Shown one piece after another: positions 1,761 through 45,145 of a stretch of DNA of 64,000 nt. Made by a program: the position numbers and the translations under genes. Within the stretch, counting starts at the first letter, position 1. Each line of letters begins with the position of its first letter. Under the pieces are notes generated by a model, which had not been told where the DNA came from, did no database searches, and saw only the letters and a list, made by a program, of their open reading frames with translations. The DNA is from Candidatus Gastranaerophilales bacterium (GTDB taxonomy: Bacteria; Cyanobacteriota; Vampirovibrionia; Gastranaerophilales; Gastranaerophilaceae). The stretch is taken from assembly GCA_963931575.1 (NCBI GenBank), contig OZ007029.1, positions 189,694 to 253,693 of the forward strand. The letters are read 5' to 3'.

Positions 1761-1862
1761 AATAATCCCCTTATATCATCAAATTATACAGCAAACATTG
1801 TAATTTTATTTTAATATTTCAAAATTATAGATTTCTTTCTACTTTTAGAGTAAGATAAACCC

Positions 1863-4110: not shown

Positions 4111-4282
4111 AAATTTATTTTATTTCAGACAAAATTAATAAACAATCCTATCAGCATAAAAATCATAAAGCGTTTAAAGATAAAAAAATGTTCAAAAAGT
4201 GTTCAAAAAGCTCTAATGTGATTTTAATAGCAATTTATATATAAATTGTTATTTGTAAATTTAAAGTAGCCTAAAATTGATT

Positions 4283-4705
4283 TTAAATTTGAAATTTTTT
4301 ATATTTTATGAATTCATTCAAATTCTTCTCGTTCTCAGCTTTCATTTCATTTTCCATTTCTTTCAGCATTTCTTCTTCGTAATCCAATCTTTTTTGTGCA
4401 AGCTTTATAAATTCTTCAATCTTGAAATCCTGTTGTTCTTTTTTGACAAGTTCTTCAACTAGATTCAGAAATACATTAAGTCTTGATGTATCTATTTTAT
4501 TGCCGTTTTTAAGTTCAGAGTTAAAATTCGCAAGCATGGTTTTGCAAAATGTATAAATATCATCTTTAGAGACTGTATGTTTATAAAGATATTGATACCT
4601 TTTTTCAGTCCAGTTTCCGTCTTTCTTCCAACGTTTTATAGTGCGTTCATTTACACCTAATCTTTTTGCAATTCCTGCAACGGTTATGAACTGCTCTGTA
4701 TACAT
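4283..4705 (-). CDS. HTH-domain protein (terminase-small-subunit / Mu gp27-like N-terminus) with a coiled-coil tail
   Basis: VAGIAKRLGVNERTIKRWKKDGNW HTH. C-terminus is rich in E and K. Lies downstream of the transposase-like paralogue. Confidence 0.35.
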   Translation of the reverse strand: MYTEQFITVAGIAKRLGVNERTIKRWKKDGNWTEKRYQYLYKHTVSKDDIYTFCKTMLANFNSELKNGNKIDTSRLNVFLNLVEELVKKEQQDFKIEEFIKLAQKRLDYEEEMLKEMENEMKAENEKNLNEFIKYKKFQI

Positions 4706-4735
4706 CTTTTCGGCAATTTCATAGTATTTATTTTT

Positions 4736-6382: not shown

Positions 6383-6769
6383 TTAACATTCCGACATAAA
6401 ATTTGTGACAATTTTAAAAGCTAAAATGCAGTAATAATAAGATTTTTTAAAAATGCTATTTTTACAATATTCACCTCAAACACTTTATCTATCTGCTTTA
6501 TAAAAAAGACAAATATTTGTCCTGTTTTTTACGAAGAAATATGAAGTGGTCTTGACGAAACAAGTTTTTGTTATATTTTCGCCATTAAAATAATTATATC
6601 TGCTGTTAAACAAGAATAAATAAGCTCAAAATTATGCTCAGGGAAATTTCCCAATAAGTCTGAAATCTTTAAGCCGGTTAAATCAGGGGTATATTTTGGT
6701 TAATTTTATAATGGGTTAAAATACTGATTTTCTGTTTAAAATCGGGGAAAAATTTATGAAGTTATGTTT

Positions 6770-7435
6770 CTAAAGTTGCACCAAACTCTTTAAATCAAAA
6801 TAAAGCTCTTTAAAGCCTCTTTTTCTCCTCCATAGAGTTTCTGCTATTTTGTAATTCAGGTTATTGGCATTTGTATTATGAGTCAGATTTCTTGACAGGT
6901 AGCAATATATTGTTGTGAACTCAGCTTTTTCCTTAGGTGAGAAAATTCTCTCATTCTCTGTTTTTAAAAGGTTTTCAGATACAAAAATTTCATTAAAATA
7001 GAAATACAAATATACTTCCTTATTGAAAAACTTTCTGTGTCGTGCTTTTTGCGGCTGTTTTAAATAATATGAGTCAAGCTGTCTTTTCTGTCTTTGATAA
7101 ATCAAGGTTCTAAATATTGTATAAAATTTCTGCACCTGATCTTCGCCTATATTTGCAATATTAGATGCCTTTATTGTTTTAATGTCCTCGCAAAAGCTCC
7201 TGATAACAGTATCCGTTACCACGGCAGGATAAAGTTTAAATATAGAATAATTCTGTGTGACAGGGTTTTGTTTGCAATATATGTATTCACTGTTTTTAGT
7301 TATCAATTTGCCTTCCTTAACGAATTCATCCAGTAAAGGCAAAAGGTCGCTTTTCGGAATTTCTGACAATATTTCGAGATTTTCAAGCGAAAATTTGTTT
7401 AGACGTCTGCAAAGCTGTAATATTTTGTCCTTCAT
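6770..7435 (-). CDS. hypothetical protein, third gene of the transposition operon (TniQ position), winged-helix-like N-terminus
   Basis: 221 aa with no motif I recognise. Overlaps the ATPase gene by 53 nt. Confidence 0.3.
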   Translation of the reverse strand: MKDKILQLCRRLNKFSLENLEILSEIPKSDLLPLLDEFVKEGKLITKNSEYIYCKQNPVTQNYSIFKLYPAVVTDTVIRSFCEDIKTIKASNIANIGEDQVQKFYTIFRTLIYQRQKRQLDSYYLKQPQKARHRKFFNKEVYLYFYFNEIFVSENLLKTENERIFSPKEKAEFTTIYCYLSRNLTHNTNANNLNYKIAETLWRRKRGFKELYFDLKSLVQL

Positions 7436-8111
7436 TTAAAATACTCCTTAGATTTTTTTCGTTAAGTTCTTTTAGTTCATTTGTTTTGGCAAGTTTTTCA
7501 ATTTTATTAATCAGTTTTACTATCTGCCTGAACTGATTATGTCTTGTTGCTAGGTACTCCAAGCCGTCATTCATAATCGGGATTTCAGATAGTTCCGATA
7601 GAATTTGCTTAATATCCTGTTTATCATAAGGTTCAAACTTAAATGCTTTATAAATCCTATCTTTCAAATGCGGATATCTTGATAACTTCTTGTCAATATT
7701 TATCATCCCGACCAGTATCATTGGACACCCTGTCCTATCACACAAATCCCTTAAAATCTCAATAACATTATTGTTTACAAGGTAGTCAACCTCATCAATA
7801 ATTAGCGGTTTGGGATTTTGTTTTAACTTCTGTTCAACGAGATTAAACGTATCCTGAATATGCCAGAAAGGTTCTTCCCCTAACTCCTCTACAATTTCTG
7901 ATAATAGCCACCTGCTTGACATTCCCTGGTTTGCTCTTACATATATGCAATCATTTTTAAAAGTCCACCACTTAATTGTTTCCGATTTGCCAAGTCCGTA
8001 TTCACCAAACACCAGAACTATTTTAGGAATATTCGCCGGAAGCTGTTTTACTTCTTCCATCAAGGCAACAAACTTTTTGACATTTTTGGTTCTTACAAAT
8101 ACTTTATTCAT
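7383..8111 (-). CDS. AAA+ transposition ATPase (MuB/TniB/TnsC-like)
   Basis: Walker A VFGEYGLGKSE and Walker B LIIDEVDYL. Begins 2 nt after the transposase stop. Confidence 0.75.
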   Translation of the reverse strand: MNKVFVRTKNVKKFVALMEEVKQLPANIPKIVLVFGEYGLGKSETIKWWTFKNDCIYVRANQGMSSRWLLSEIVEELGEEPFWHIQDTFNLVEQKLKQNPKPLIIDEVDYLVNNNVIEILRDLCDRTGCPMILVGMINIDKKLSRYPHLKDRIYKAFKFEPYDKQDIKQILSELSEIPIMNDGLEYLATRHNQFRQIVKLINKIEKLAKTNELKELNEKNLRSILNEGQNITALQTSKQIFA

Positions 8112-8113
8112 TT

Positions 8114-10093
8114 TTATGCTCCGTATAAATTGTTATATTCATCACTGCTTAAATACTTTTCAAGCCACTTCCGCTGTTCGGGATTAGTGCAACCATATTT
8201 CATTAACCATTCATATTTTTCATAATCTGCATTAAAAACAGGTACATTCATCTGTTGTTCTCTAAAGTTTAATTTGCGTTTTAGTGGTGTTTTAGTCTGT
8301 TCAAATTTTTCAATTTCAATAACTTCTTCCTGTTCAATCTCTATAGCTTCTGCTTTTTCTTTAGGGAAATACTTTAAGAACTCTTTTTTCACTCTCTTAA
8401 ATCTGCGTTGCTGTTTTTGTATTTGTTGCTTAAATTGTTCCATATCTTTTACTGTTCCTAAATGATTTGCCATTGGATGAACTTTTTCAACTTGTCTTGC
8501 GATACATAAAAATTCACCTTTTATTGAATACACAAGGACTTTTGAAAGGTCAAACAAACTGTATTTTATAAATACTTTTTCTCTTAAATCCAATAAATAA
8601 TCACTCCTATAATGCATTCCAAGAAATGTTATTCCATGTTTATTTATTGTTCTTACTTCAGTTTTCATCATAAGGTCGTTCAAAATACTTTTATCAATAT
8701 TCTCTTTTGAAATATCATTTAACATCTCTTGAATAGTTTTTGAACGGTTATTAGGACAAGGTTTTGAATTATGGTAATCGAGCCAGCAATCTATAAATTT
8801 TATTGTTTCTTGAATTGTTGGAATATAGTTTTTTGTTAACTTATTATGCATCTCTCTATGCAATTTTTCTCCTCGCTTCATCCAAGCAGGTTTATTTTCA
8901 ATACTTGTTCCTATATAACTTGTCATCATTTTTTCAAACTCTTCTTGAAATTCAAGAAAGAATCTTTCAATAACTTTTGCTCTTGCATTATATGGTTTTG
9001 CAAAAACTGATTTTATTCCAAGTTTTGTATAAATCCCATTAAACCCAGCTTCGTCAAAATCTATATTTTGAAAATATTTTGCTTTAAATGCTTTTCCGTT
9101 ATCTTGATAAACTACTTTTGGAATCAAGCCGAGATTTAAAATAGAATTTCTTAATGCACTTGCTATGCATTGAGTATTCTCACTCATCATAATTTCATAT
9201 CCGACTAATGCTGTTGATTTCCAATCTAAAAAGCCGACTAAAGTTGCTCTGGTCGGCTTTCCTGTAAATGGATTGATTATTTGAAAATTAAGAACATGTC
9301 CGTCAGCTATCAAAACATCTCCTACTTCAATTTTAGAAATATCTCGTTCTATATACGGTTCAATTTTATCGTGATATGCTTTTTCACCTTCTCTAAATAA
9401 AACCCACTTTGAATAATTGTTTTTCTTAAAATTCTCCGCAAATCTTCTGAATGTTAGATTACAAGGAATATTTTCATATCCTCGCTTTTCTAGAATATGT
9501 TTTGTTAAATTTATAGCTTTTCCGATACTAAATTTATTCGGGTATAACAAATATTTCAAAAATATCTGTTTCATCTCCTCATTCAAAATCGTATTATATT
9601 CACCTTGTTTATTAGTTTTGCGTTTTTGTAGAAGCCCGTCCGTTCCATAATTTTCAAACATCTTAACCCAACGATGGAGTGTTCCTATCGAAATTGAACC
9701 AACAAACTTATATATTTGGGGCAAATACATTCCACTGTTATATAAATCTAAAAATACTGAATCAGCCTCTTTTTTAGTTGGATATTTTTTACGAATATTA
9801 TATAAGGCAGTTACTATATCCACTCTTGCAAGTGCTGTTAATCTTGCATTTTCTGATACAAAATTCCCCTTGTTTTCAAACGAAACAATTGCTGTTGTTT
9901 TTAATTCTTCTTGATCTAATCTATCTTGTATCTCAGGTTCTAATGAAGAATAAAGAATTTCATACGATTTCCCGCCTCTTACTTCAACTTCTCTTGCAAT
10001 ATACTTACCTTGGTTAATTGCAAGTCTTATTGAACGTGTACTTTTTAATCCTTTTAATTCTGCGATTTTGTTAATATTTATATATTCGTCCAT
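8114..10093 (-). CDS. DDE transposase, MuA/TnsB/TniA-like
   Basis: N-terminal HTH (INKIAELKGLKSTRSIRLAINQGK); ADGHVLNF (D1); VYQDNGKAF (D2); AKVIERFF (E); Mu-type C-terminal barrel (INKHGITFLGMHY...KVFIKYSLFDLSKVLVY). Confidence 0.8.
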   Translation of the reverse strand: MDEYININKIAELKGLKSTRSIRLAINQGKYIAREVEVRGGKSYEILYSSLEPEIQDRLDQEELKTTAIVSFENKGNFVSENARLTALARVDIVTALYNIRKKYPTKKEADSVFLDLYNSGMYLPQIYKFVGSISIGTLHRWVKMFENYGTDGLLQKRKTNKQGEYNTILNEEMKQIFLKYLLYPNKFSIGKAINLTKHILEKRGYENIPCNLTFRRFAENFKKNNYSKWVLFREGEKAYHDKIEPYIERDISKIEVGDVLIADGHVLNFQIINPFTGKPTRATLVGFLDWKSTALVGYEIMMSENTQCIASALRNSILNLGLIPKVVYQDNGKAFKAKYFQNIDFDEAGFNGIYTKLGIKSVFAKPYNARAKVIERFFLEFQEEFEKMMTSYIGTSIENKPAWMKRGEKLHREMHNKLTKNYIPTIQETIKFIDCWLDYHNSKPCPNNRSKTIQEMLNDISKENIDKSILNDLMMKTEVRTINKHGITFLGMHYRSDYLLDLREKVFIKYSLFDLSKVLVYSIKGEFLCIARQVEKVHPMANHLGTVKDMEQFKQQIQKQQRRFKRVKKEFLKYFPKEKAEAIEIEQEEVIEIEKFEQTKTPLKRKLNFREQQMNVPVFNADYEKYEWLMKYGCTNPEQRKWLEKYLSSDEYNNLYGA

Positions 10094-10177
10094 ACATACA
10101 GATTAACTCTGAAGTCGGAAATGTGTTCCTTTTTTCCTTCTTTTGTATCATTAGGACATAATTTTATTCAATATACG

Positions 10178-10217
10178 AACCGGACTTTATTTACTTAAAA
10201 TGTCAAATATAATCGTT
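10178..10217 (+). repeat. Direct repeat copy 1 (aaccggactttatttacttaaaatgtcaaatataatcgtt)
   Basis: Identical to 12398-12435 except for a 2-bp TA indel. Lies 85 bp upstream of the transposase start. Confidence 0.9.
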
Positions 10218-10247
10218 GTATGTGTACAGATAAAAATACAAAAGATA

Positions 10248-10556
10248 TTAATTATTATTAGGTTTAGAATCAATATCAGTAGCTTCTATTTTGAAGATTA
10301 CCGGTCTTAATCCATCGTTGCAACTTACAATAGCAACTCCTTTTTCTTTAATCCAATCTCCATAATAAAAAACATCTTCAATTCCGTGAGAAAGTGCAAA
10401 TACATATTGATAAATAGCTTTCCACGCTTCATTACAAAATCCTTCGGGACATTCCCAATCTGCGTAAAATTCTTGTCCTTCTTTTAACATTGGACAAGCT
10501 GTTAAACCATCTACACCATATTGTTGTGAAAGTTCTTTATCAAAGTGCTTTTTCAA
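10248..10556 (-). CDS. small Cys-containing protein, TIGR04076-like
   Basis: 102 aa. CPMLKEGQEF...WECPEGFCNEAW...SCNDGLRPVIFKIE recalls the TIGR04076 family; this recognition is from memory. Confidence 0.45.
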   Translation of the reverse strand: MKKHFDKELSQQYGVDGLTACPMLKEGQEFYADWECPEGFCNEAWKAIYQYVFALSHGIEDVFYYGDWIKEKGVAIVSCNDGLRPVIFKIEATDIDSKPNNN

Positions 10557-10832
10557 AACAGTAATTTTGCATTTTTTAATATTACTATACTCCTTAATAG
10601 GATATTATATTAAAAATTTCTATTTTTTACACTTAATTTAGAAATGTTAACTTTATTTATTTGAGAATAAATATTTGATTAATTCTCCTTAAATATACAC
10701 AGTGAACTTTTCCAGTTTATAAAAATCACTTCTGACCCAAAATTAAATTTCAAATAATCATTTTATTCGAAGAAATAATCTAATTCAAAAGGTAGCATCT
10801 TACAAACTGTAAAGTAAAATGTGAAAACTAAA

Positions 10833-10862
10833 AATTCCACGGGCTATTAATTCCGTGGAATT
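10833..10862 (-). terminator. Rho-independent terminator after the flavoprotein gene
   Basis: aattccacgg...ccgtggaatt stem with a T-rich tail on the minus strand. Confidence 0.5.
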
Positions 10863-10922
10863 TTCAATATCTGAATACGCAAGGCACTTATATCTTTGCT
10901 TTTAGACTTAATGCATCATATC

Positions 10923-11558
10923 TTATTTTATAAAATTTGTGTAAATATAATTTTCAATATTTGGTAAATCGTGATTAGATTTAATATAAAATTCTTTCAT
11001 TTCTAAAAACCAAGCCATATTTGTACCTAATATTCTCATAGTCTGCAGACCTTCTTCATCTTTTTTAACATCTTCAGGCGTCCAACCATGAACCATATTC
11101 CAATATCTTGAAGATATAATAGGCATTTCTGACACTAAAAAATATTTATTTAATTGGTCTAAAGTTGCAGTTGTTCCTGCACGTCTTGCAGAAATTATTG
11201 CTGCACCGGGTTTAAGATAAAACCTCTTTTTATTGCTCAAAGAATCTGCAAAAAAGGCTCTATCTAAAAAAGGTACAATTATACCGCTGGCACTTGCATA
11301 GTGAACAGGAGAACCAAAAATAAATCCATCAGCATTTTCAGCTTTATCAAGGAATTCATTCACTTTATCGTTAATAACACATTTGCCTAATTTTGCACAA
11401 GCTCTGCAATCTCGGCAAGGAGAAATTGCATTTGTTCCAATATAAAATATTTCAGTTTCAATATTTTTTTGATTTAATACATTTGCGACTTCACATAAAG
11501 CAGTATAAGTACAGCCCTGTTTATGTGGTGAACCATTTAGTAAAAGAACTTTCATCAC
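10923..11558 (-). CDS. flavodoxin-like NAD(P)H-dependent FMN reductase / iron-sulfur flavoprotein
   Basis: MKVLLLNGSPHKQGCT N-terminus, CRDCRACAKLGKC cysteine cluster, FGSPVHYASASG. Confidence 0.7.
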   Translation of the reverse strand: MMKVLLLNGSPHKQGCTYTALCEVANVLNQKNIETEIFYIGTNAISPCRDCRACAKLGKCVINDKVNEFLDKAENADGFIFGSPVHYASASGIIVPFLDRAFFADSLSNKKRFYLKPGAAIISARRAGTTATLDQLNKYFLVSEMPIISSRYWNMVHGWTPEDVKKDEEGLQTMRILGTNMAWFLEMKEFYIKSNHDLPNIENYIYTNFIK

Positions 11559-11938
11559 TACTCTCCATAAGATAATGTATCATAAACTTTTGCAACAATT
11601 TTCCAATCACCGTTAATCTTATTCATAATTAATAAATCTGTGAATTTATACCCGTGCCAATTATCTTCAATAACCCTCACTACCGCAATGGTTTTTTCTA
11701 ACGTAATAACATCCACTCTTGCGACATAATCATCTGTGCAAGCCCCCATTTTATCTATAGTATCGTAGAAAAGTTGAATTGAACCTGATTGATATTCTTT
11801 TTCATTTAATTGACCATAGAAGCTTGCCTTTTCATAAAAATAAGGTTTTACAATTTCACTATTACCATTTTTAACAGCTTCAATAAATTTTCTTGCTAAA
11901 TTCTCAACTGTGTTGAATTCTTCTATTTGTTCTCTCAT
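11558..11938 (-). CDS. NTF2/SnoaL-like small protein
   Basis: 126 aa. Alpha+beta cone-like pattern (VRVIEDNWHGYKFTDLLIMNKINGDWKIV). Its stop overlaps the next gene's start. Confidence 0.4.
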   Translation of the reverse strand: MREQIEEFNTVENLARKFIEAVKNGNSEIVKPYFYEKASFYGQLNEKEYQSGSIQLFYDTIDKMGACTDDYVARVDVITLEKTIAVVRVIEDNWHGYKFTDLLIMNKINGDWKIVAKVYDTLSYGE

Positions 11939-12039
11939 ATAATCCTCCTTTACTTTTTACAAGAAGCATGATAAACTTTAGCGGTAATTTATTCAAGTAC
12001 GGATATTTAGGTAACCTACTTACTTTAAAGGAACCATTT

Positions 12040-12384
12040 ATGGAAAAAGAAGAAAAAGATTGCATAAATAGTGTTGAAAGTTTTGAAGAAACTGGATTTA
12101 ATTATACTCTATCTCTAATAAGCGGAAAATATAAACTAACAATTTTATATGCTCTATATAGACATAAAGTAATTCGCTTTAATCAATTACAAAAATATTT
12201 AAAAATGATTTCACATAAAACATTAAGTAATGTATTAAAAGAACTTGAAGCGGATGATTTAATCATAAGAAAAGAATATCCGCAAATTCCTCCTAAGGTT
12301 GAATATTCGTTATCGGAAAAAGGGAAATCACTTATTCCTATACTATATTCATTATGTGAATGGGGAGAGAAGCATAAAATTTAA
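12040..12384 (+). CDS. HxlR-family winged-helix transcriptional regulator
   Basis: LISGKYKLTILYALY...RFNQLQKYL..ISHKTLSNVLKELEADDLIIRKEY..IPPKVEYSLSEKG. ATG 12040 is preferred over the upstream extension in the track. Confidence 0.75.
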   Translation: MEKEEKDCINSVESFEETGFNYTLSLISGKYKLTILYALYRHKVIRFNQLQKYLKMISHKTLSNVLKELEADDLIIRKEYPQIPPKVEYSLSEKGKSLIPILYSLCEWGEKHKI

Positions 12385-12397
12385 AACTTTTTATAGT

Positions 12398-12435
12398 AAC
12401 CGGACTTTATTTACTTAAAATGTCAAATAATCGTT
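12398..12435 (+). repeat. Direct repeat copy 2
   Basis: Matches 10178-10217. Together the two copies bracket the 2.2-kb four-gene cassette. Confidence 0.9.
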
Positions 12436-12615
12436 TTAGCCGTACAAGTTAGATTGTGAGGGCGAAATAGACTATAACATTGATTTTAAAATAGAAAATT
12501 TAAGTCAATTCTTGGACAGTAATCGGACAATGATGACCAAGAAAAGACCCTTTTGTAACATGTAAAACGATTACTTCCGACCGCCAAAGTTCAAACACAA
12601 AGCCAACTTTGCCGA

Positions 12616-12725
12616 ATAATCTTTTTATGCGTTCAGATAAAATGTCCCGTTAAATTACATAAAATGTCCCGTTAAATTACAATAATCTTTTTATGCGTGC
12701 AGATAAAATGTCCCGTTAAATTACA
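12616..12725 (+). repeat. Tandem repeat block: 3 x 23 bp (ataaaatgtcccgttaaattaca) and 2 x 21 bp (aataatctttttatgcgtKcag)
   Basis: 23-mers lie at 12637-12659, 12659-12681 and 12703-12725. 21-mers lie at 12616-12636 and about 12682-12702. The last 23-mer ends in ACA, 45 bp from the tRNA 3' end. Confidence 0.9.
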
Positions 12726-12743
12726 ATTATATATCCAACAAAA

Positions 12744-12765
12744 AAGACCCGCTTCAGCGGGTCTT
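12744..12765 (-). terminator. Terminator of tRNA-Ser
   Basis: aagacccgc-ttca-gcgggtctt hairpin followed by a T-run on the minus strand. Confidence 0.7.
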
Positions 12766-12770
12766 AAATT

Positions 12771-12860
12771 CGGAGACGGAGAGATTCGAACTCTCGGTGC
12801 AGGTAGCCCCACACAACACCTTAGCAGGGTGCCGCCTTAAGCCAACTCGGCCACGTCTCC
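12771..12860 (-). tRNA. tRNA-Ser (anticodon GCU), class II with a long variable arm; no encoded CCA
   Basis: Reverse complement is GGAGACGTGGCCGAGTTGGCTTAAGGCGGCACCCTGCTAAGGTGTTGTGTGGGGCTACCTGCACCGAGAGTTCGAATCTCTCCGTCTCCG. It folds by hand: 7-bp acceptor stem, anticodon loop CTGCTAA, T-arm GAGAG-TTCGAAT-CTCTC. Confidence 0.9.
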
Positions 12861-15829: not shown

Positions 15830-16450
15830 CTAATTATTCAGGACATAGTCAGCTGCATTTGTTTTCGGGTAAATATGATCCATCTTAATTACTACAGGGA
15901 AAATATCTCTGATAGCGTCGCTTGTAACAGCGCAGGTGTTGGATAAATCGGTATCAACAGTACCTTCAGTACAGACAACGATTGAGTTAGGCCCTTTGTC
16001 ACCGTTAACATCAATGAAAGCATCGCAAGGGTGTGCATTTGTACATCCTGTAGCATCCATTATCGTAAGACTTCCTTCATCAAAGATTACCTGTGCGCCG
16101 TTTTTCATAAGATAAGTTTTACCCACATTAGCTTCCGTAAGGCTGTCTTTAGGCGCGTTTCTGGTTACTTCTTTTGCATTGTAGTGGTGTTCCATAAAAC
16201 GGTCGAGTGTAAATTCAGCTTCATTCGGTAGAGTTACGCTGTTAGAAACTTTTACAAAAGGGTGTTTGTTGACGTTTGCTGCAGTTGTTAACCCCTGTTG
16301 GATTTGTTCAAATGTTGATTTATATAATGTTTTATAAGCTTTTGTTCTGGCGCCTGAAATCTGATTTGGAATAACCAATCCGGCAACAATACCGATAACA
16401 GCCATAGCTATTAATACTTCGGAAAGTGAAAATGCTGATATCTTTTTCAT
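15830..16450 (-). CDS. type IV pilin/pseudopilin-like protein with a conventional short leader
   Basis: MKKISAFSLSEVLIAMAVIGIVAGLVIP prepilin-type N-terminus. VNGDKGPN motif is shared with the five-paralogue family. Confidence 0.7.
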   Translation of the reverse strand: MKKISAFSLSEVLIAMAVIGIVAGLVIPNQISGARTKAYKTLYKSTFEQIQQGLTTAANVNKHPFVKVSNSVTLPNEAEFTLDRFMEHHYNAKEVTRNAPKDSLTEANVGKTYLMKNGAQVIFDEGSLTIMDATGCTNAHPCDAFIDVNGDKGPNSIVVCTEGTVDTDLSNTCAVTSDAIRDIFPVVIKMDHIYPKTNAADYVLNN

Positions 16451-17116: not shown

Positions 17117-19198
17117 CTATTCTTCAGCACATCCGAAAGCAATAGTAACGTGTTCTCTTGGATTAACTGCGGAGATTTTATAACCGCGAGGGTCAACAAG
17201 GTAAGCAATTTCGTCGCCGGTAGTCTGGAATAAGCCCATAGCTCCTGATAAAGCTGTTCTTGTTGTATCAATAGGAGCTTTAACAGTTTCCCATACACCA
17301 TCGCCGAGGTTTCTGGCAGCAGCGCCAAATTGGCCCTGGAATACGTGACCGAGCATATAGCCTGCGTCGTTGGTTACGTTTTCAGCTGCGTTACCGACGT
17401 TAGTCAGGATACCGCCTGCTGTTCTGCCGACAACACCTATCATGGAACCTGCAAGGGTAAATGGAGCTTCTACAAGTCTTGCAAGAGGGTTAACCTGTTT
17501 TGATTTGTTAACCTGTGCTGTCAAAATTTGTTTTGGCAGATTAGCTTTGCATTTGCCGTTTTTGATGCTTGTGAAAGAAAGTTTCAACGCACCCTTGTCG
17601 CAGCCGGAAGGTCTTACAATTTCAACAACCTGACCGGTTACAACAGAACCGCAAGGGAAGGATTGACCGTTAATTGTTATATCTTCAAGAGTTTTTGCTC
17701 TGAAGTATTGACCTACGTGTGAAGATTTTGCCGTAATCTGGTCGATCATTTTAACCTTCAATGTAGGGATTTTAACGATTTCTTCTTCTTCAACAAATGC
17801 TTTTTTGTCTGTAGGACATACAGGGCAGATTTCATTTGCTGTTTTAGGGTTAGTGTCATAGCCTAATGCTACGCGGACTGTTTGCATCATAGATGCAACA
17901 TCGGCACGGGAAGCATCTTTGTTAGGCATAATCATATTCGGGTTAGGTGAATCTTTCAGTGCACCGCTTGATAATGATTTTGCAACCGGAATTCTTGCCC
18001 AGTTTGGAACTGACGCGCCGTCTGTGTATTTGCTTAAAATTTCATCAGCTTTACACTGGTCGATATCGCAGGTCATACCTTTTGCAATTGTTGTCAGGGC
18101 TTCTGCTCTTGTTACGTTTTTACCCGGTTCAAATTTGCCGTCAGGATATCCCTTCATAAGGTTTTCGTCAACTGCTTTTGCAATTGCAGGGTTAGCCCAG
18201 TTTGAGGTTGGTACATCTTTGAACTGTGTTGTTCTGTTCATGTCGCAATCAAGATTGAAACCTTTGACAAGCATAGTTGCGAATTCTGCACGTGAAATGT
18301 TTTTGTTTGGCTTGAATAAGCCGTCCGGATAACCTACGACAACATCATTCATTGCGAGTTTGTCGATATTGCATGCTGCCCAGTAGCCGTTCGGAACATC
18401 AGGGAACGCGCAGCCGCCGCCTAAATCCGCAGCAGCACCGGTCATGGTGTTTACGCCCATATCAGATAATGCTGCATTAATGTCGAAAGGGACGAAATTC
18501 TTTTTAATTGCCTCCATAGAATTTTCTGTTTGCAAATCAATAGGGCAATTTTTGCCGTCCATAGTTCTTTCGTTTCTCATAACAGGGATACCGTTGTATC
18601 TGTCAGGAGCTTCGTTAAGGCACGGAATTTGGGTTGCCGCACCGGTAATCTGACCGTCTGAAGCAACGGTTACGCCGTTAATATCAGAGGATAAACGATT
18701 AACAGAGTGGTTTCCTATTGCTGTTTCTGAAGAAAGGATTGAGTTTGCAGGTTGACCCACGTAGTTGTTTGTTCCGTAAATAGCGTTGGGATAACCATAG
18801 ACTTGACGCATATCTTGTCTTGACGGTTTACCTGTTTGTGCGCATGCAGCACACGCCGGTTCCGGAGCAGGTTCACAGCTTAAATCAGCGTCTCCACCAC
18901 ATCCACAATCCTTGTCTTGCTTTTTTGGGTGGCAAGGATCCTCACATGGTGTTGCGCAAGGTGCCGGTTCCTCCTTGCAGTTGCATTCATCAAAAGATTT
19001 CTTGCATTTGTTGCAATTTGTTTTTGGAACTTCGTTACACGGACAAGCTCCGCCTGTTACTACAGGTAATGGTTCTGCACAAGGCGCAATCGGTTGAGCG
19101 CTCTGAGTGCACGGGCAGGTAGCCATTGCTTGGGTCAAGGAACTCGTTACTATTCCAACGGCAATTGCAGCTGCCACAGTAAGTTTTTTAATAGTCAT
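17117..19198 (-). CDS. SLH-domain cell-envelope protein with a Cys-rich N-terminal module
   Basis: Signal peptide. Three SLH repeats (FPDVPNGYWA...GYPDGLFKPNKNISRAEFA; FKDVPTSNWA...GYPDGKFEPGKNVTRAEAL; YTDGASVPNWA...). About 24 Cys in the first ~125 residues. Confidence 0.8.
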   Translation of the reverse strand: MTIKKLTVAAAIAVGIVTSSLTQAMATCPCTQSAQPIAPCAEPLPVVTGGACPCNEVPKTNCNKCKKSFDECNCKEEPAPCATPCEDPCHPKKQDKDCGCGGDADLSCEPAPEPACAACAQTGKPSRQDMRQVYGYPNAIYGTNNYVGQPANSILSSETAIGNHSVNRLSSDINGVTVASDGQITGAATQIPCLNEAPDRYNGIPVMRNERTMDGKNCPIDLQTENSMEAIKKNFVPFDINAALSDMGVNTMTGAAADLGGGCAFPDVPNGYWAACNIDKLAMNDVVVGYPDGLFKPNKNISRAEFATMLVKGFNLDCDMNRTTQFKDVPTSNWANPAIAKAVDENLMKGYPDGKFEPGKNVTRAEALTTIAKGMTCDIDQCKADEILSKYTDGASVPNWARIPVAKSLSSGALKDSPNPNMIMPNKDASRADVASMMQTVRVALGYDTNPKTANEICPVCPTDKKAFVEEEEIVKIPTLKVKMIDQITAKSSHVGQYFRAKTLEDITINGQSFPCGSVVTGQVVEIVRPSGCDKGALKLSFTSIKNGKCKANLPKQILTAQVNKSKQVNPLARLVEAPFTLAGSMIGVVGRTAGGILTNVGNAAENVTNDAGYMLGHVFQGQFGAAARNLGDGVWETVKAPIDTTRTALSGAMGLFQTTGDEIAYLVDPRGYKISAVNPREHVTIAFGCAEE

Positions 19199-20794: not shown

Positions 20795-20823
20795 TTGACT
20801 AATTCTAAAACATGGTACATAAT
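20795..20823 (+). promoter_or_regulatory. Consensus-like sigma70 promoter of pilin paralogue 1
   Basis: TTGACT-17 bp-CATAAT. The block ...AACATGGTACATAATG is conserved in all five paralogue loci. Confidence 0.7.
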
Positions 20824-20827
20824 GAAG

Positions 20828-20933
20828 AAGGCAATAAGGCAATAAGAGAATAAGGCAATAAGTCGTAGTGGCCAAATGGAAGAAAAAAGAATAGTCCTAT
20901 TGCCATAATGCCCTATTAACTTATTGCCTTATT
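20828..20933 (+). repeat. Long AT-rich inverted-repeat leader built from GGCAATAAG / CTTATTGCC units (copy 1)
   Basis: Left arm is aaggcaataaggcaataagagaataaggcaataag. Right arm is ctattgccataatgccctattaacttattgccttatt. Confidence 0.85.
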
Positions 20934-21106
20934 CCAGTAGTTTGGGCTTTCCAGCCCAACGGAACAAAAAGAAAGGATCGGCGGTCGGCGCGAGCGAGCC
21001 GAGAGTGGAGTGCGTGACGCACGTAACTCGTTTTCGGCGAGTCGAGCAAGAAAAGCCGGTACCATAATTAGACAATGGCGGAACGCCAGAAAGGATAGAA
21101 GAACTT

Positions 21107-22390
21107 ATGAAAAACCGAAGTGTAACAAATTATGCAGGGGGGGGGGGGAGCCGCTCAACCGGTAAATCCTGCACCTTAGGCATCAATGTCATTCAGAACA
21201 GCGAACGAAGCGAGCGTGATTCAGGATCTGACAAGTGTAGCGAACTACCGGTGTCGTTGGACAGATCCCGAAATAAATTCGGAATGACACCGCCGGTCAA
21301 GGCGGCTTCCTGTTTGGGTTGGTCGTTAAAAGGTCATGTTCAACCCTTGTGGATGGCACTCAGTGCCTTTACCATGGCAGCCAGGCTGAGCCGCTCGACT
21401 GAGTCGGTCGCTGAGCGACTTCCACAATTGAATCCGAGCAAGAATTTAGCATTCACAATGGCAGAAATCTTATTATCCCTCACGATAATCGGAGTTGTGG
21501 CGGCGATAACGCTTCCAAGCCTTACCGGAAACATTAATGAGCGCACATGGAACACGCAGCGAAAAGCCCTCTATGCCAGAATGAGTCAGGCGATTGCGCT
21601 TATGCCAGCATTAAATGGCTATGGTACACTGACCGAAGGCGACAGTTCGACTTCAGCAGAGGATACCGCCGCTGAAACCTTTGTCACAGCAGGTTTATCA
21701 AAAGTTCTTAAAATAAATAACATCTGTGACAGCGAGCACCTTGAAGATTGCGGAATTGTTTCACAGATTACAAATCTGCAGGCCAGTAAGGTCAATGTTC
21801 CAACTACTCTTGTCGGATTGAATCCTATGTTTAACAGTACTTTTATTGGCGGGCCGACTGGCAGCGGAAGCTTTACTTATTCCCAACTTGACACTAAGGC
21901 TGCTGCGTTTGAAACCGCTAATGGTGAAAGTATAATTGTCTACTATAATCCGGCCTGCCAATCTGATTTGGCGGAAACTGAATGGAATTACAGGCAGGCT
22001 AAAATGTGTGCGAACTTTATTTATGACCTGAATGGAAGTAAAGGACCTAATACTTTTGGTAAAGATATAGGGGTTATAACCGTATTGTATCCTTCGGATT
22101 CTTCTGTCGTTGCTCCGATACCGGCGTCAGTCAGGAGCGCCGGTTCATCATCGCAGAGAGATGCCGGTAAATTATGCCTGTCACAGGATTCAGAAGGTCG
22201 TGTTCCTAATAGGGATGAACTTGCTGCTGTATTTTATAATAGAGTTATGTTTGGGCTTCCGGGCAGCGATTACTTTTGGACCAGTTCTGTCATAGATTCT
22301 TCTAATGGCTGGGGACAAAGCTTTTATACCGGTCGTGCTGCAATATTGCCGCGAACAGGCGGATATAATGTCTGGTGCGTTAAACGTTAA
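21107..22390 (+). CDS. pilin-like adhesin paralogue 1: long hairpin-module leader, prepilin N-terminus and DUF1566-like C-terminus; in frame with its SD-ATG
   Basis: AFTMAEILLSLTIIGVVAAITLPSLTGNINERTWNTQRKALYAR; DLNGSKGPNT; C-terminal RVPNRDELAAVF...YFWTSS...VWCVKR. Confidence 0.75.
   Translation: MKNRSVTNYAGGGGSRSTGKSCTLGINVIQNSERSERDSGSDKCSELPVSLDRSRNKFGMTPPVKAASCLGWSLKGHVQPLWMALSAFTMAARLSRSTESVAERLPQLNPSKNLAFTMAEILLSLTIIGVVAAITLPSLTGNINERTWNTQRKALYARMSQAIALMPALNGYGTLTEGDSSTSAEDTAAETFVTAGLSKVLKINNICDSEHLEDCGIVSQITNLQASKVNVPTTLVGLNPMFNSTFIGGPTGSGSFTYSQLDTKAAAFETANGESIIVYYNPACQSDLAETEWNYRQAKMCANFIYDLNGSKGPNTFGKDIGVITVLYPSDSSVVAPIPASVRSAGSSSQRDAGKLCLSQDSEGRVPNRDELAAVFYNRVMFGLPGSDYFWTSSVIDSSNGWGQSFYTGRAAILPRTGGYNVWCVKR
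21137..21148 (+). repeat. Poly-G tract, G12, 30 nt after SD-ATG 21107 (in frame)
   Basis: Counted directly; encodes GGGG in the ORF track protein MKNRSVTNYAGGGGSRS. Confidence 0.9.
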
Positions 22391-22396
22391 TCGCCG

Positions 22397-23140
22397 TTAC
22401 ATCGGAACTGAGCGCAGCACCATGTAATACTTGTAATCACCCCAGTATAGAATTATTACTATAAAATTATCATCTAAGTCCTCCGCTTCCAGATATGTCT
22501 TTGGCATTTCCGGACGCTGCGAGGACTTAAATTTTCCTACAAATTTTAACAAACGCAGGTGCTGGCGTTGCGACCAGGTGGTTTTTTCTTCCGGCAGGTG
22601 GTCTTTATAAAAGTCCATAGGTACAATCTTTTTATCATAAATCGGCACAATGTATTTCACCTTTCCGGCTTCTTTGAAAAGCATATACCAGTTGCCGGCA
22701 TGTTCGCGCGGGGTGAGTAAGTAGTATCCCGGCTGAATTGTTATGGTTTTGAAGTATAGCGGTGCGGTCAATCGAAAAAGAGAATATGGCGACCACGCAG
22801 CGTTTTGGGTGTCAACGTATTCATCCGGATCAAGGTCGTGAACATATCTGAAATCCGGAACGTCAAGGCTCCGGTATATTTCAGGAATGTCAGAATCTTC
22901 AATATCTTTGTATTCACTATCTTGTGCGGTGTTGTCCTGTGGAATTTCGGCCGGCTCTGCGGAACTTTCTGTGGCTGTAGTATCTTCCGGTAATGCTTCC
23001 TCCGGCTGTGCAGGTGAAGTCGCCGGTTGTTCGTCCTGATTCGCCGGTACTGTTTGCGGCGGTTCGCCTACCCGTTCATCACATAAACCGGCTGTACCCA
23101 ATATTATTCCCGTTAACACTAACAAAAATATTCGCTTCAT
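22397..23140 (-). CDS. secreted hypothetical protein with a Pro/Glu/Thr-rich N-terminal region
   Basis: Signal peptide MKRIFLLVLTGIILGTAGLC. No domain recognised. Confidence 0.45.
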   Translation of the reverse strand: MKRIFLLVLTGIILGTAGLCDERVGEPPQTVPANQDEQPATSPAQPEEALPEDTTATESSAEPAEIPQDNTAQDSEYKDIEDSDIPEIYRSLDVPDFRYVHDLDPDEYVDTQNAAWSPYSLFRLTAPLYFKTITIQPGYYLLTPREHAGNWYMLFKEAGKVKYIVPIYDKKIVPMDFYKDHLPEEKTTWSQRQHLRLLKFVGKFKSSQRPEMPKTYLEAEDLDDNFIVIILYWGDYKYYMVLRSVPM

Positions 23141-24553: not shown

Positions 24554-24582
24554 TTGACTAAATAGAAAACATGGTACATAAT
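24554..24582 (+). promoter_or_regulatory. Promoter of pilin paralogue 2
   Basis: TTGACT-17 bp-CATAAT. Confidence 0.7.
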
Positions 24583-24673
24583 GAAAGAGTGCCGCTGAGC
24601 GGCATCCATAATAAGACAATGGCAAAATGCCAAGAAAGGATGGAAAAATGGAAAAACGTAAGAGTGTAACAAT

Positions 24674-25909
24674 TTGCACGGGGGGGGGGGGGGGCCGGCT
24701 GAGCCGACCGCTGAGCGGTACCCACGACTGAACCCGAGCGACTGGACAAAGAAATCCCCATATTGTCATCCTGAACTGCGCGAGCGAGCAGAGGCACAAA
24801 GCGAAAACCACGCTTTTCGCGGTGCCGTTTTGCGCGAGTCGAGCAAGACAGATTCAGGATCTGACCAGTGTTGCGAACTACCGGTGTCGCTGGCCAGATC
24901 CCGAAATAAATTCGGGATGACATTACAGAAAATAACCATGTCTTGTGGTTTTACAATGGCAGAAATCCTGTTATCCCTCACGATAATCGGCGTTGTGGCG
25001 GCGATAACGCTACCAAGTTTAACCGGAAATATTAACGAGCGGACGTGGAACACTCAGCGAAAAGCGCTTTATGCACGACTTTCACAGGCAATATCTCTAA
25101 TGCCTGCTCTGAACGGTTACGGAACATTAAAAGAGGAAAGTTCTGCCGGTGCGAGTGATGCAGTGGATACTGTTGCAGAAACTTTTTTAACGGCAGGACT
25201 TTCAAAAGTTCTTAAAATAAATAACATCTGCGATAATGAACATCTACCTGATTGCGGTCTGTCGTCCAGAATTACAAATCTTGCGGCAAGTCAGATTGAT
25301 TTACCGTTGAAGTTGTCTGATTTGAATCCGCTTAATATATATGTATCTCAATCGTGGAGTGCAACGACATCGCATGGTGCCGGCTCTAGATATTATTCTA
25401 TGATGGATGCAAAAGCCGCTGCATTTGAAACCGCTAATGGTGAAAGTGTTGTCGCTTATTACAATTCGTCTTGCGCGCCTTCAATGTCCGAGAGTGCAGG
25501 TATTTATGCCGCAGCTAAGATTTGTGTAAGTTTTCTTTATGACCTGAACGGGAACAAAGGCCCGAATACTGTTGGTAAAGATCTCGGTTTGATCACGGTA
25601 TATTATCCTTCCGATAGTCTGGTTGTTGCTCCGGTGCCTTATTCACGCGATGCAGGAGTGTTAGTTTCAGATTCCGGTGTTAATAGCATTTGTAAATCTC
25701 TGGATGAAGATTACCGGCTGCCTACTATCGAAGAATTGGGGGCGCTTTCCTTTAACTCTGAACTTATAGGAAATTTAGATGCTGAGCGTTATGCCTCATC
25801 CACTTTCCTATCTTCTTCCAAAAAATGGTATTTACATGCCGACTCAGGAATATTGAATGTAGATGACAGATTTTCTACGACTTCGGACATCAGATGTGTT
25901 AAAAGATAA
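24674..25909 (+). CDS. pilin-like adhesin paralogue 2; frame is open from the poly-G tract; alternative conventional start at ATG 24917
   Basis: SCGFTMAEILLSLTIIGVVAAITLPSL...; DLNGNKGPNT; C-terminal YRLPTIEELGALS...DIRCVKR. Confidence 0.7.
   Translation: MHGGGGGPAEPTAERYPRLNPSDWTKKSPYCHPELRERAEAQSENHAFRGAVLRESSKTDSGSDQCCELPVSLARSRNKFGMTLQKITMSCGFTMAEILLSLTIIGVVAAITLPSLTGNINERTWNTQRKALYARLSQAISLMPALNGYGTLKEESSAGASDAVDTVAETFLTAGLSKVLKINNICDNEHLPDCGLSSRITNLAASQIDLPLKLSDLNPLNIYVSQSWSATTSHGAGSRYYSMMDAKAAAFETANGESVVAYYNSSCAPSMSESAGIYAAAKICVSFLYDLNGNKGPNTVGKDLGLITVYYPSDSLVVAPVPYSRDAGVLVSDSGVNSICKSLDEDYRLPTIEELGALSFNSELIGNLDAERYASSTFLSSSKKWYLHADSGILNVDDRFSTTSDIRCVKR
24680..24694 (+). repeat. Poly-G tract, G15, after SD-ATG 24648 (out of frame; +1 or -2 G needed)
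   Basis: Counted directly. The ATG 24648 frame stops at about 24723 (MEKRKSVTICTGGGGGRLSRPLSGTHD*). Confidence 0.9.
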
Positions 25910-26171: not shown

Positions 26172-28145
26172 TTGACTAAAGAAGCAGTTGAAACGCAACA
26201 AAAACTGAATAAGGCGAAGAAGCGTGTTGAGAAACAGGCTACCAACCCTATTTCCGGTTTATCCAAAGCGCCGGAATTGAAGGTTACAAAGAGTGCCTCG
26301 AACGTATTATCAATAGAGTCGCAGGCGCCGAAAATTCAGGAGCCGGAAAACAAACAGCAGCGTAACGCGGAAATGGCACCCGGCTTAATTGCTACTATAA
26401 ACACTTTTAACGCGAATAAATCACACAACCGTCTTTATAGCGGCTATGCAAGCAATCCTATTGCCGGAAAGGCTGTCGTAAACGGAAACGAACTGGCTAA
26501 TGCGGTTTGTTCGGCACTGAAAAACAGAACGGATATTTCAGAACTTTTTGTCGCTATTCATAACACCTGCTGCGAAAAACTTAACAGTATTTATACAGGT
26601 TTCGGGCTTTATCACGAAACCTCCAGATGCATAGATTTTAAACTTTTTTCTAAAATCGGCGGAACATATTCCTCAAAAATCTTCCAGTCTGACAGCGAAA
26701 ACCCTATTATGGAATGTTTTACCACACAAAAACCAGTCATTCTGAAAGATAATAAGTTCTTAAATATTCCGTACCTGAAAAATTCAGAAACGATAATTCT
26801 GCCGCTGATGTCGATTGATAAATGCCTTGGCATAATGCTTTTAGGCAGAAATGACCTTGTGAACAATCTGGAGCTTCTGGGCTTTATTGCAAACTATTGC
26901 GGTCTGTTTATTCATAATTTTGAACTTATTGAACGAACCGCAAAATACGCAAATACAGACACTTTGACCGGCATGTACACCCACCGAGGATTTCAGGAAG
27001 TGCTCTCTGCCGAACTTGAAAAAGCTAAAACAAATAAAACACCGCTTTCGATTGTTATGTTTGACGTTAATAACATTTCAAAAATTAACAGAGAACTCGG
27101 GCATGCCAAAGGTGATGAGGTTATTAAGGTTCTGGCGGAAAAGATTAAACAGAGTGCAAGAAATTCCGATATTGCAGGACGCTACGGCGGCGATGAGATT
27201 GCTTTGATTTTACCTAACACAAACACCGCTGATGCAAAATATCTTGCAGAATACATAACTTACTGCCTGTCTTGCTGCTTTATTGATGATGTAGGGCCGG
27301 TTAAGGTTGCGGTTGGTATTTCTACATATCCTGATTGTTCGGAAAATCAGGAAAAATTGCTGATACTTGCAGAACAGGCAATGATTATTTCGCAGGCAAA
27401 GGGCTACAAAGAGGGTATGTCTGCGATTATAAGCTCTTCGGACTTCAATTTCTGGGATGATGAGGCGCTCAGTTCATTCGCGCAGGTTATCTCCAAGCGC
27501 CACTCGCAATTGGGAATTAATTATGAAGAAGAACTTGTACAGAAATTCAATACTTCAGAAGTCAAATCGCACAATCACCTTGTAGAAATGGTTACGTCAT
27601 TAACCGCTGCAATTGATGCGAAGGATCCATATACAAAAGGTCACTCAACTTCTGTGTCAAGGTATTCAGAGGCGCTTGCACGTGCAATAAATCTTCCTGA
27701 AGAAGAGGTTCAACGAATTGCACTCGGGGCACAGCTTCACGATGTCGGCAAAATCGGTATCCCTGAAAATGTCTTGAGAAAAACTGATAAACTTTCGGAT
27801 GAAGAATGGGAAATTATGAAACAGCACCCGACGATTGGGGCAGAAAAGGTTCTTGAACCAAATCCTGGTTTAAGAGATTTGATTCCGATGGTAAAATATC
27901 ACCATGAAAAAATCGACGGAACAGGCTATCCTATGGGCTTGAAGGGGGATGAAATTCCGCTTGAAGCAAGGATAATCTCCGTTGCGGATGCGTATCACGC
28001 ACTTGTAAGTGACAGACCGTACCGTAAGGGCATGCCGCTGGAAAAGGCGTGTGCGATTTTGAAAGACGGCGCGGGCAAACACTGGGATGCGAATCTCGTA
28101 AGACATTTTATCGCGATTGCACCGTCACTTTCTACAAGTGTGTAA
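26172..28145 (+). CDS. multidomain c-di-GMP enzyme: sensor (GAF-like) + GGDEF + HD-GYP
   Basis: RYGGDEIAL (GGDEF site). LHDVGKIGIP and HHEKIDGTGYP (HD-GYP). TTG start as in the track. Confidence 0.8.
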   Translation: MTKEAVETQQKLNKAKKRVEKQATNPISGLSKAPELKVTKSASNVLSIESQAPKIQEPENKQQRNAEMAPGLIATINTFNANKSHNRLYSGYASNPIAGKAVVNGNELANAVCSALKNRTDISELFVAIHNTCCEKLNSIYTGFGLYHETSRCIDFKLFSKIGGTYSSKIFQSDSENPIMECFTTQKPVILKDNKFLNIPYLKNSETIILPLMSIDKCLGIMLLGRNDLVNNLELLGFIANYCGLFIHNFELIERTAKYANTDTLTGMYTHRGFQEVLSAELEKAKTNKTPLSIVMFDVNNISKINRELGHAKGDEVIKVLAEKIKQSARNSDIAGRYGGDEIALILPNTNTADAKYLAEYITYCLSCCFIDDVGPVKVAVGISTYPDCSENQEKLLILAEQAMIISQAKGYKEGMSAIISSSDFNFWDDEALSSFAQVISKRHSQLGINYEEELVQKFNTSEVKSHNHLVEMVTSLTAAIDAKDPYTKGHSTSVSRYSEALARAINLPEEEVQRIALGAQLHDVGKIGIPENVLRKTDKLSDEEWEIMKQHPTIGAEKVLEPNPGLRDLIPMVKYHHEKIDGTGYPMGLKGDEIPLEARIISVADAYHALVSDRPYRKGMPLEKACAILKDGAGKHWDANLVRHFIAIAPSLSTSV

Positions 28146-44768: not shown

Positions 44769-44899
44769 ACAAAACCTCTCTTTTAACTTCAATTCTATCA
44801 TATTTTTTGAATGAAAGCAATCATATATTGACATGACTTGAAACATGGTACATAACCGCCGGTCAAGGCGGCTTCCTAATTAGACCCTTGCTATCGGTC

Positions 44900-44928
44900 T
44901 TGACTAAACTCAAAACATGGTACATAAT
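44900..44928 (+). promoter_or_regulatory. Promoter of pilin paralogue 3
   Basis: TTGACT-17 bp-CATAAT. A partial duplicate of the aacatggtacataa block lies at 44836-44850. Confidence 0.7.
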
Positions 44929-44933: not shown

Positions 44934-45096
44934 TGGCAATAAGTAAATAAGGCAATAGGGCAAAAAGTCGTTATGGCCAAATTGACGATAAAAGTTAATA
45001 AGTTAATAGGTTAAAGAGTTAATAAGGAATATGACCGAATGAAAGAAAAAAAGAATATTCCTATTGCCCTAATGCCTTAATGACCTATTGCCTTAT
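44934..45096 (+). repeat. AT-rich GGCAATAAG inverted-repeat leader (copy 3, expanded loop with GTTAATAAG units)
   Basis: Left arm gtggcaataagtaaataaggcaatagggc; right arm cctattgccctaatgccttaatgacctattgccttat. Confidence 0.8.
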
Positions 45097-45145
45097 GCAA
45101 AAAAAAGAAAGGATGGAAAAATGAAAAAGCGAATTGTAAGTATGT

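Follow-up and report, generated by a model that had tools for sequence, protein, structure and literature searches.

A likely phase-variable family of modular type-IV-pilin-like proteins with a variable Lcl_C-type head in an uncultured gut bacterium of the Gastranaerophilales

How do pilin-like genes that begin almost identically come to end so differently, and what sets the expression of each? These questions are raised by a 64-kb stretch of DNA (the window, by which we mean the full stretch) from an uncultured gut bacterium of the Gastranaerophilales (Melainabacteria), which are non-photosynthetic relatives of the cyanobacteria. Searching the window by tblastn with the mature proteins, we found exactly five pilin-like paralogues, which we call g1 to g5 and whose coordinates we count from the phenylalanine of the motif FTMAE. 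Our analysis suggests an answer that we consider likely, namely that these genes are phase-variable contingency loci and form a family whose products are modular pilin-like proteins, each ending in a variable Lcl_C-type head. On the same reading, they would be members of a large lineage-specific family of type-IV-pilin-like proteins of ~310 residues, each built from a class III signal with a hydrophobic N-terminus, a globular body of ~165 residues with two variable loops, and a C-terminal domain of ~90 residues.

The mature proteins are encoded on the forward strand at 21452-22390 (g1), 24950-25909 (g2), 45347-46312 (g3) and 50561-51502 (g4), and on the reverse strand at 53163-54110 (g5). An earlier note on this DNA had pointed to five intervals of divergent sequence, and we found that these are the 3' ends of the five genes (22125-22390, 25640-25909, 46027-46312, 51241-51502 and 53163-53440, in order), an observation confirmed by tblastn and by pairwise identities. 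Mean pairwise protein identity falls from 97% over residues 1-60 to 59% over the body and to 29% (range 25-33%) after the sequence ...VVAP; in g1 the conserved N-terminal helix and body run from FTMAEILL... to ...VVAPIP (21452-22124). The shared blocks listed in the note are indeed present: AAETFxTxGLSKVLKINNICD, AAAFETxNGES, DLNGxKGPNT and YPSDSxVVAP. The divergence of the last ~90 residues likewise stands, but these are not the sole variable part, since two loops of the body (alignment columns ~105-150 and 171-190) are, at 15-45% identity, as variable as the C-terminus. The C-terminal skeleton, C..R.P...E......N...G...W/F.SS...W...G...C[VI][KY]R, is also present, with exceptions to its proposed [YHS]R[LIV]P element in g1 (GRVP) and g5 (SRLS). 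Across more than 160 paralogues of several species, the first ~43-60 residues are invariant. Not all C-termini are fast-evolving: one C-terminal type is 70-73% conserved across four metagenome-assembled genomes (MAGs). Together with the invariant skeleton, this conservation indicates that the domain is under selection.

To which organism do these genes belong, and how large is the family? The g1 protein is 100% identical to a protein in the MAG 'Candidatus Gastranaerophilales bacterium BRZ_KI__bin23'. By megablast, the window DNA is only 95-98% identical to that MAG, and the window therefore represents another strain of the same species. In the protein collection, 2551 proteins match the family at E<=0.001, and at least 467 genomic matches are confirmed. 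Our comparisons across genomes use the best 80 of these at least 467 matches, all of which come from six Gastranaerophilus/Melainabacteria MAGs (one bears the record label 'Fusobacterium sp.'); within these 80 loci alone, the six genomes hold 13, 28, 15, 10, 10 and 4 copies. The body domain (residues 57-225) is present in only 451 of 1.84 billion cluster representatives. Among the full-length matches listed, the best 150 of those 451 representatives, the body match usually stops ~85-100 residues short of the C-terminus, from which we conclude that the architecture is uniform and lineage-specific. The same matches gave no sign of alternative C-terminal modules on the same body. The 'interchangeable' domains that had been proposed are thus not supported in the sense of swapped modules: all members carry one domain type of uniform length.

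The identity of this C-terminal domain had been suggested earlier as DUF1566/Lcl_C, and both profile and fold comparisons now support that resemblance. The Pfam family Lcl_C (PF07603, formerly DUF1566) is matched by 93 of 118 relatives at E<=0.01, with a best value of 2.3e-9, and many relatives carry a precomputed PF07603 match; in the window, g1 matches with E 9.4e-5. A profile of 50 diverse C-termini matched the C-terminal domain of Legionella Lcl (PDB 8q4e) with E 1.3e-5 over profile positions 27-91, in an alignment that pairs the RLPxxxEL, YWSS and vRCV motifs. The fold comparison was made with the AlphaFold2 model of g1, whose mean predicted local distance difference test (pLDDT) score is 84.6 (80-95 over residues 30-215). 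Its top Foldseek match was again 8q4e (E 2.9e-5, root-mean-square deviation 1.5 Å over 90 columns, target template-modelling score 0.58), followed by the Bdellovibrio Bd2740 C-terminal domain (8oks) and snake-venom C-type lectins; the structure prediction thus places the C-terminal part of g1 in a C-type-lectin-like fold. Finally, a hidden Markov model of family C-termini that was built without the window sequences gave 64-105 bits for all five window domains (64.5 bits for g3), whereas 1000 shuffles scored at most 7.8 bits. All five C-termini, g3 included, are therefore variants of a single domain. Together, these results support the prediction that the C-terminal ~90 residues are a DUF1566/Lcl_C-type, C-type-lectin-like domain.

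Lcl of Legionella pneumophila is the best match of the family domain by both sequence profile and fold. Arginine 250 and glutamate 256, which are invariant in the family, have the spacing of the conserved Lcl salt bridge Arg338/Glu344 and align to its motif (PMC11162425). Lcl, however, is a trimer on a collagen-like stalk that is secreted by the type II secretion system, whereas the family domain is fused to a pilin-like protein. The family domain is also shorter than Lcl_C, matching only positions ~41-117 of the Pfam model, and it has two invariant cysteines, C242 and C309, whereas Lcl is without disulfides; these two residues may form one. Lcl binds sulphated glycosaminoglycans; the family domain is predicted to bind ligands, probably glycans.

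We then ask what determines whether such a protein is made. Runs of at least eight G occur just five times in the 64 kb: every pilin gene has one such tract, 12-15 G long, on its upstream side. Each lies ~30-50 nt 3' of an ATG that is preceded by AAAGGA, and when the pilin frame is followed backwards from the pilin start, it stays open to beyond the tract in 5/5 genes. The leader open reading frame (ORF) of g1 (21107-21451) begins with a Shine-Dalgarno (SD) sequence and an ATG at 21107, contains 12 G (21137-21148), and is in frame with the pilin (ON). For the remaining genes, reading the frame from the ATG gave the opposite state (OFF). The g2 leader (24648-24949, ATG at 24648) holds 15 G (24680-24694) and would be in frame at 13 or 16; that of g3 (45121-45346, ATG at 45121) holds 13 G (45151-45163) and would be in frame at 12 or 15; that of g4 (50338-50560, ATG at 50338) holds 14 G (50367-50380) and would be in frame at 13 or 16; and that of g5 (54111-54477 on the reverse strand, ATG at 54477) holds 12 G (54417-54428) and would be in frame at 11 or 14. 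In the window, therefore, g1 alone is in frame.

The same arrangement recurs in other genomes. In other Gastranaerophilus genomes, the tract lies 10-30 nt before the phenylalanine codon and encodes leader glycines, and across the six genomes its position is conserved, always inside an ORF led by an SD sequence and ATG. Leaders in the related species are 15-25 residues long with a GGGG run, and follow the pattern M-K-x8-GGGG-x4-G/A directly before FTMAE; one example, when in frame, reads M-N-K-R-N-V-L-S-C-A-GGGG-R-A-E-Q-A before FTMAE. Among 55 loci with usable upstream sequence, the frame reading was ON in 14 and OFF in 41. In 38 loci, 60 nt or more separate the tract from the pilin start; 36 of them have a pilin frame that is open over this whole distance, as against none of the 76 other frames, and this argues strongly that translation from the upstream ATG is important. 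Tract length, moreover, differs between assemblies: the g2 tract has 15 G in the window, 14 G at L003 and L004, and 13 G, the in-frame count, at L001. L003 is 98-100% identical to the window over ~2.1 kb of the g2 locus, while L001, L004 and the far flanks of L003 have an overall megablast identity of 93-98% only. In an exact-protein look-up, g4 was on record in no further strain; exact matches to the g3 protein necessarily share its G count and are uninformative on tract variation. The family thus has the features of contingency loci, in that repeat length sets the reading frame and differs between near-identical assemblies. In silico, tract placement, the logic of the frames and the length differences between assemblies support the suggestion of a separate phase switch for every gene, and the putative switch would be a homopolymeric G run in the leader-peptide coding region. 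We propose that translation would start at the SD-preceded ATG upstream of a tract of 12-15 G in leader codons, that slipped-strand changes in the number of G would set the pilin in or out of frame, and that each cell would thereby express its own stochastic selection of the genes, with g1 ON and g2 to g5 OFF in this assembly.

Some loci of the family are poorly assembled at this point. In several MAGs, either N's stand inside the poly-G tract or the contig stops less than about 300 nt upstream of the pilin start (L031, L066, L018, L027 and ~20 loci at contig ends). Family loci seem to break short-read assemblies, as expected if tract length is heterogeneous in the sample.

Each gene also appears to be transcribed on its own. 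A promoter-like TTGAC(T/G)-17-CATAAT precedes 5/5 genes: the site is TTGACT-17-CATAAT at 20795-20823 for g1, and the same hexamer pair is found at 24554-24582 (g2), 44900-44928 (g3), 50176-50204 (g4) and, on the reverse strand, 54604-54632 (g5). Terminator-like hairpins lie 3' of g3, g4 (51506-51535) and g5 (53128-53155), and 5/5 copies have a promoter-like site, an SD sequence, a leader and a full-length ORF. These features support the prediction that each gene is an independent promoter-to-terminator unit. In the reference MAG, a complete pilin unit of 1.43 kb (promoter, G13 leader, gene and terminator) occupies positions 1560-2996 of L061. At the corresponding site of the window (63137-63164) there is only a 26-nt spacer, and whole units are therefore gained or lost between strains.

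Between tract and pilin start, 5/5 genes carry an element of 88-200 bp with terminal inverted repeats TGTCATCCTGAA...TTCGGGATGACA that resembles a miniature inverted-repeat transposable element (MITE); it lies at 21187-21289 in g1, 24761-24925 in g2, 45220-45323 in g3, 50426-50513 in g4 and 54156-54353 in g5. The element occurs nowhere else in the window, and related species are without it. Its stem shows a compensatory change (CCCGAA/TTCGGG versus CCTGAA/TTCAGG), and the element keeps the pilin frame open. The g1 leader also contains a vestigial second pilin start, AFTMAA (21365-21382; TTTACCATGGCAG), 84 nt upstream of the real start (TTCACAATGGCAG), which looks like a duplication around a small insertion. 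Further upstream, the 5' untranslated regions (UTRs) of g1, g3 and g5 (20824-20934, 44935-45096 and 54499-54598) hold imperfect inverted arrays of the motif GGCAATAAG, with arms of 28-39 nt that are 74-86% complementary; these might serve as an array of binding sites for a regulator, or form a structured leader RNA. An Rfam scan of the whole window at gathering thresholds found tRNA-Ser only, and a permissive scan of the region upstream of g3 found no match; the hairpins of the leaders and 5' UTRs therefore match no described RNA family.

Are the proteins pilins? In all five genes, G/A directly precedes FTMAEILLSLTIIGVVAAITLPSL at the N-terminus, which constitutes a class III signal: G/A at -1, F at +1 and E at +5, followed by ~20 hydrophobic residues. 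The model TIGR02532 (cutoff 16.3 bits) scores 20.2, 16.6 and 16.6 in g2, g4 and g5, and 16.2 and 15.3 in g3 and g1. The prepilin-type N-terminus claimed earlier is thus supported by the signal and by three scores above the cutoff. In the same genus, Ca. Gastranaerophilus termiticola has been reported with pilA, pilB, pilC, pilT and pilD (PMC5877343). The class III signal and this genus context justify the term 'pilin-like', and we infer that the proteins would be processed by a prepilin peptidase and displayed on a type 4 filament.

Several observations weigh against the phase-variable, modular-pilin interpretation. The window proteins reach 13-23 bits against Lcl_C, whose gathering threshold is 34.9, and g3 had no Lcl_C match in a single-protein scan; N_methyl likewise lies below its cutoff in the window family proteins. 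The Pfam search therefore recovers Lcl_C across the relatives but leaves the window proteins under the cut-offs of both models. In the pilin fold, a long N-terminal helix packs on an antiparallel beta-sheet. The AlphaFold2 model of the body has a helix at residues 28-50 and then many strands, with residues 1-27 lacking a confident helix; modelled alone (pLDDT 78), the body had no significant fold match in the PDB by Foldseek, pilins included (best E 1.0). The 64-kb window contains no pilus-assembly (PilB/C/D/Q-like) or prepilin-peptidase genes. Counted from the upstream ATG, the leaders are ~70-115 residues long in the window, because the inverted-repeat element is inserted in frame, and ~200 residues in one related allele; leader peptides of type IV pilins are short (about 5-30 residues) and positively charged, and we know of no prepilin with a leader of ~70-115 residues. 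Synonymous divergence (dS) is undefined or above 1.5 in most segments, so that its ratio to non-synonymous divergence (dN/dS) is unable to show positive selection. Tract lengths, lastly, are the consensus of short-read assemblies, in which homopolymer lengths are error-prone, rather than read-level data.

Some of these observations would fit proteins that are not pilus subunits. The class III signal could serve only for the export and membrane anchoring of surface binding proteins or of pseudopilin-like secretion parts, and the lectin-like domain would then capture glycans for nutrition, not adhesion; archaeal 'bindosome' sugar-binding proteins carry class III signals. The body without a fold match to solved pilins and the absence of assembly genes from the window would be expected in that case, and a separate prepilin-like gene at 15830-16450 could be the true filament subunit. 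We nevertheless consider this unlikely, as the invariant first residues fit a shared filament-packing interface better than a mere anchor, and pilins that carry a binding module at the C-terminus are already established as a class of modular pilins (PMC8179133). Alternatively, the G tracts might be no switch at all, their length differences being assembly or sequencing errors, translation beginning at internal starts, and the C-terminus drifting under relaxed constraint. Illumina homopolymer calls are unreliable, N's occur inside the tract at several MAG loci, and in g2 to g5 an ATG or TTG that lies a few codons ahead of the cleavage site could serve as an internal start. This explanation, however, has to contend with a tract whose position inside an SD-ATG-led ORF is conserved across six genomes, with a pilin frame that is kept open over 60-550 nt in 36 of 38 loci, which would have no explanation if upstream translation did not matter, and with a C-terminal skeleton that is invariant and a C-terminal type that is conserved across four MAGs; we judge it distinctly improbable.

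The origin of the divergent C-termini invites two further explanations. The earlier note had envisaged gene conversion between loci through long identical 5' halves. Neisseria pilE/pilS is a system of this kind, in which promoterless silent cassettes have identical DNA blocks in common with one expression locus. It is true that gene regions are mosaic between strains and that, in its 5' third, every copy encodes the same amino acids. We found, however, that the 5' DNA of the paralogues is only 77-84% identical, so that the 'near-identical' N-terminal part is near-identical as protein but not as DNA. Only about half of the synonymous codons are the same, synonymous sites approach saturation even where the amino acids are 100% identical, and exact matches between two window paralogues extend, at their longest, over 14-38 nt. 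Identity that exists only at the protein level indicates that the paralogues are old and that purifying selection, rather than recent gene conversion, maintains their N-terminus. The mosaicism, for its part, is allelic. At L003, a divergent allele (78-85% identical as DNA, 93% as protein, dS saturated) makes up the entire g1 unit (window ~20811-22400) and sits inside flanks of 98-100% identity. At L001, a single patch of ~120 nt (21471-21590) matches this L003 allele with at most two mismatches, as against 13 for the nearest paralogue in the data; within the first 240 nt, every one of g1 to g5 has at least 23 differences. The donor of the one traceable patch is thus a same-locus allele, not a paralogue, and the recombination seen involves alleles that different strains carry at one locus. 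Since the copies are, in addition, complete units of the expressed type and include no promoterless silent cassettes, conversion between paralogues strikes us as very improbable. Still less credible, to the point of being nearly negligible, is a diversity-generating retroelement (DGR), even though DUF1566 is listed among DGR target domains (PMC6642488, PMC11661182). Searching the rest of the 64-kb window for copies of the C-terminal segments (blastn, word size 7) returned chance matches only, which argues against a DGR template as well as silent cassettes, and no reverse-transcriptase ORF was seen among the translated or Pfam-scanned ORFs of the window. The differences span the whole 90-residue domain and, between alleles, are mostly synonymous, whereas a DGR mutates only adenine-templated positions; nor would a DGR typically have dozens of scattered targets.

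Comparison of alleles places the divergence in the C-terminal domain as well. Between strains, g5 differs by 4% in the body and by 20% in the C-terminal domain (43.9 synonymous versus 26.1 non-synonymous changes between alleles), and the g4 C-terminus differs by ~30% as protein and ~40% as DNA within flanks that are 94-100% identical. In another species, the position syntenic with g3 holds a copy whose identity is ~70% in the body and ~30% in the C-terminus, between flanking genes of 82-88% DNA identity. Ranked by dN, the C-terminus exceeds the body, and the body the N-terminus. We propose that the C-terminal diversity would be old paralogous and allelic divergence, reshuffled by same-locus homologous recombination between strains, and that neither on-the-spot hypermutation nor conversion between paralogues would be its source.

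The window holds other genes near these loci. The smaller prepilin-like gene at 15830-16450 on the reverse strand encodes 206 residues, and scores 25.2 bits against N_methyl, above the Pfam threshold. It shows no relation to the family and is a candidate for an ordinary pilin; its neighbours encode a TPR protein and an SLH-domain protein (17117-19198). Three genes related to cyclic di-GMP, with a possible regulatory link to the pilins, lie close to the pilin genes (26172-28145, 43890-44846 and 56973-58880); two are of the GGDEF + HD-GYP type and one is GGDEF, and one stands after g2 and one before g3. At the start of the window, positions 1-12860 form an island of low G+C content (29-30% versus ~40%) that adjoins tRNA-Ser(GCT) at 12771-12860. 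It carries Mu-transposase-like genes (4736-6382 and 8114-10093), a TniB-like ATPase gene (7383-8111), and defence genes, namely HamA of Hachiman (948-1760), two DNA methyltransferase-like genes (1863-3496) and a possible restriction enzyme (3493-4110). The island looks like a Tn7/Mu-like mobile element with defence cargo.

How does the family compare with systems already described? In Neisseria, opa and pilC are unlinked, individually transcribed loci in which a repeat in leader codons, CTCTT (opa) or poly-G (pilC), sets the frame; Opa proteins have a conserved framework with hypervariable ligand-binding regions, and cells express stochastic subsets of them. The present family differs from Opa and pilC in its protein scaffolds, in its phylum and in the organism that carries it, an uncultured gut commensal rather than a pathogen, and switching in it is inferred. 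Among InterPro entries, IPR011460 is, we take it, DUF1566, and IPR011871 presumably the related Fib_succ_major domain. Both appear in the InterPro survey of Raynaud et al., which lists the combinations IPR012902-IPR011460 (7 proteins) and IPR012902-IPR011871 (40 proteins) (PMC8179133). The modular type IV pilins of S. sanguinis, PilB with a vWA module and PilC with a lectin module (Raynaud et al. 2021, PMC8179133), resemble the family in joining a class III signal to a C-terminal module, which binds ligands in S. sanguinis and would do so here. The body of our proteins, however, is a large lineage-specific domain without a match to solved pilins, and there are dozens of genes per genome with a repeat switch on each, whereas the known modular pilins are single minor pilins of a pil operon. 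In Bifidobacterium breve, slippage in an intragenic G-tract is reported to switch pilus expression ON and OFF in a gut commensal (PMC9187656), much as we propose here; the pili described there are sortase-dependent and encoded by two clusters, whereas the window family comprises many type-IV-pilin-like genes. Our literature search found no paper that ties names beginning with Gastranaerophil, or the Melainabacteria, to poly-G, phase variation or these pilins. A bolder picture can be drawn from these comparisons, which we hold tentatively and with slightly less than even confidence: an Opa-like repertoire of dozens of type-4-filament subunits with different lectin-like heads, each switched by poly-G, with leaders that in this species have been invaded by in-frame MITE-like hairpins to give prepilins with leaders of ~100 residues. 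It would be the first surface-variation system described in this lineage, a host-associated sister group of the cyanobacteria.

The family brings together two known kinds of system, modular pilins and contingency loci. It would widen the notion of modular pilins beyond single minor pilins to include an entire variable family, and DUF1566 would gain a definite role that can be tested. Whether leaders of about 100 residues can be processed by a prepilin peptidase is a further question that it raises, and in metagenomes the poly-G tracts can serve directly, at the level of reads, as a marker of population heterogeneity. The Gastranaerophilales are common, uncultured members of the human and animal gut microbiota, and their interaction with host and diet is poorly known. 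If our interpretation is true, tens of switchable lectin-type surface proteins would provide them with bet-hedging as in the mucosal pathogens Neisseria, Helicobacter and Campylobacter, and the likely purposes would be the binding of variable glycans or the evasion of phage and immune pressure.

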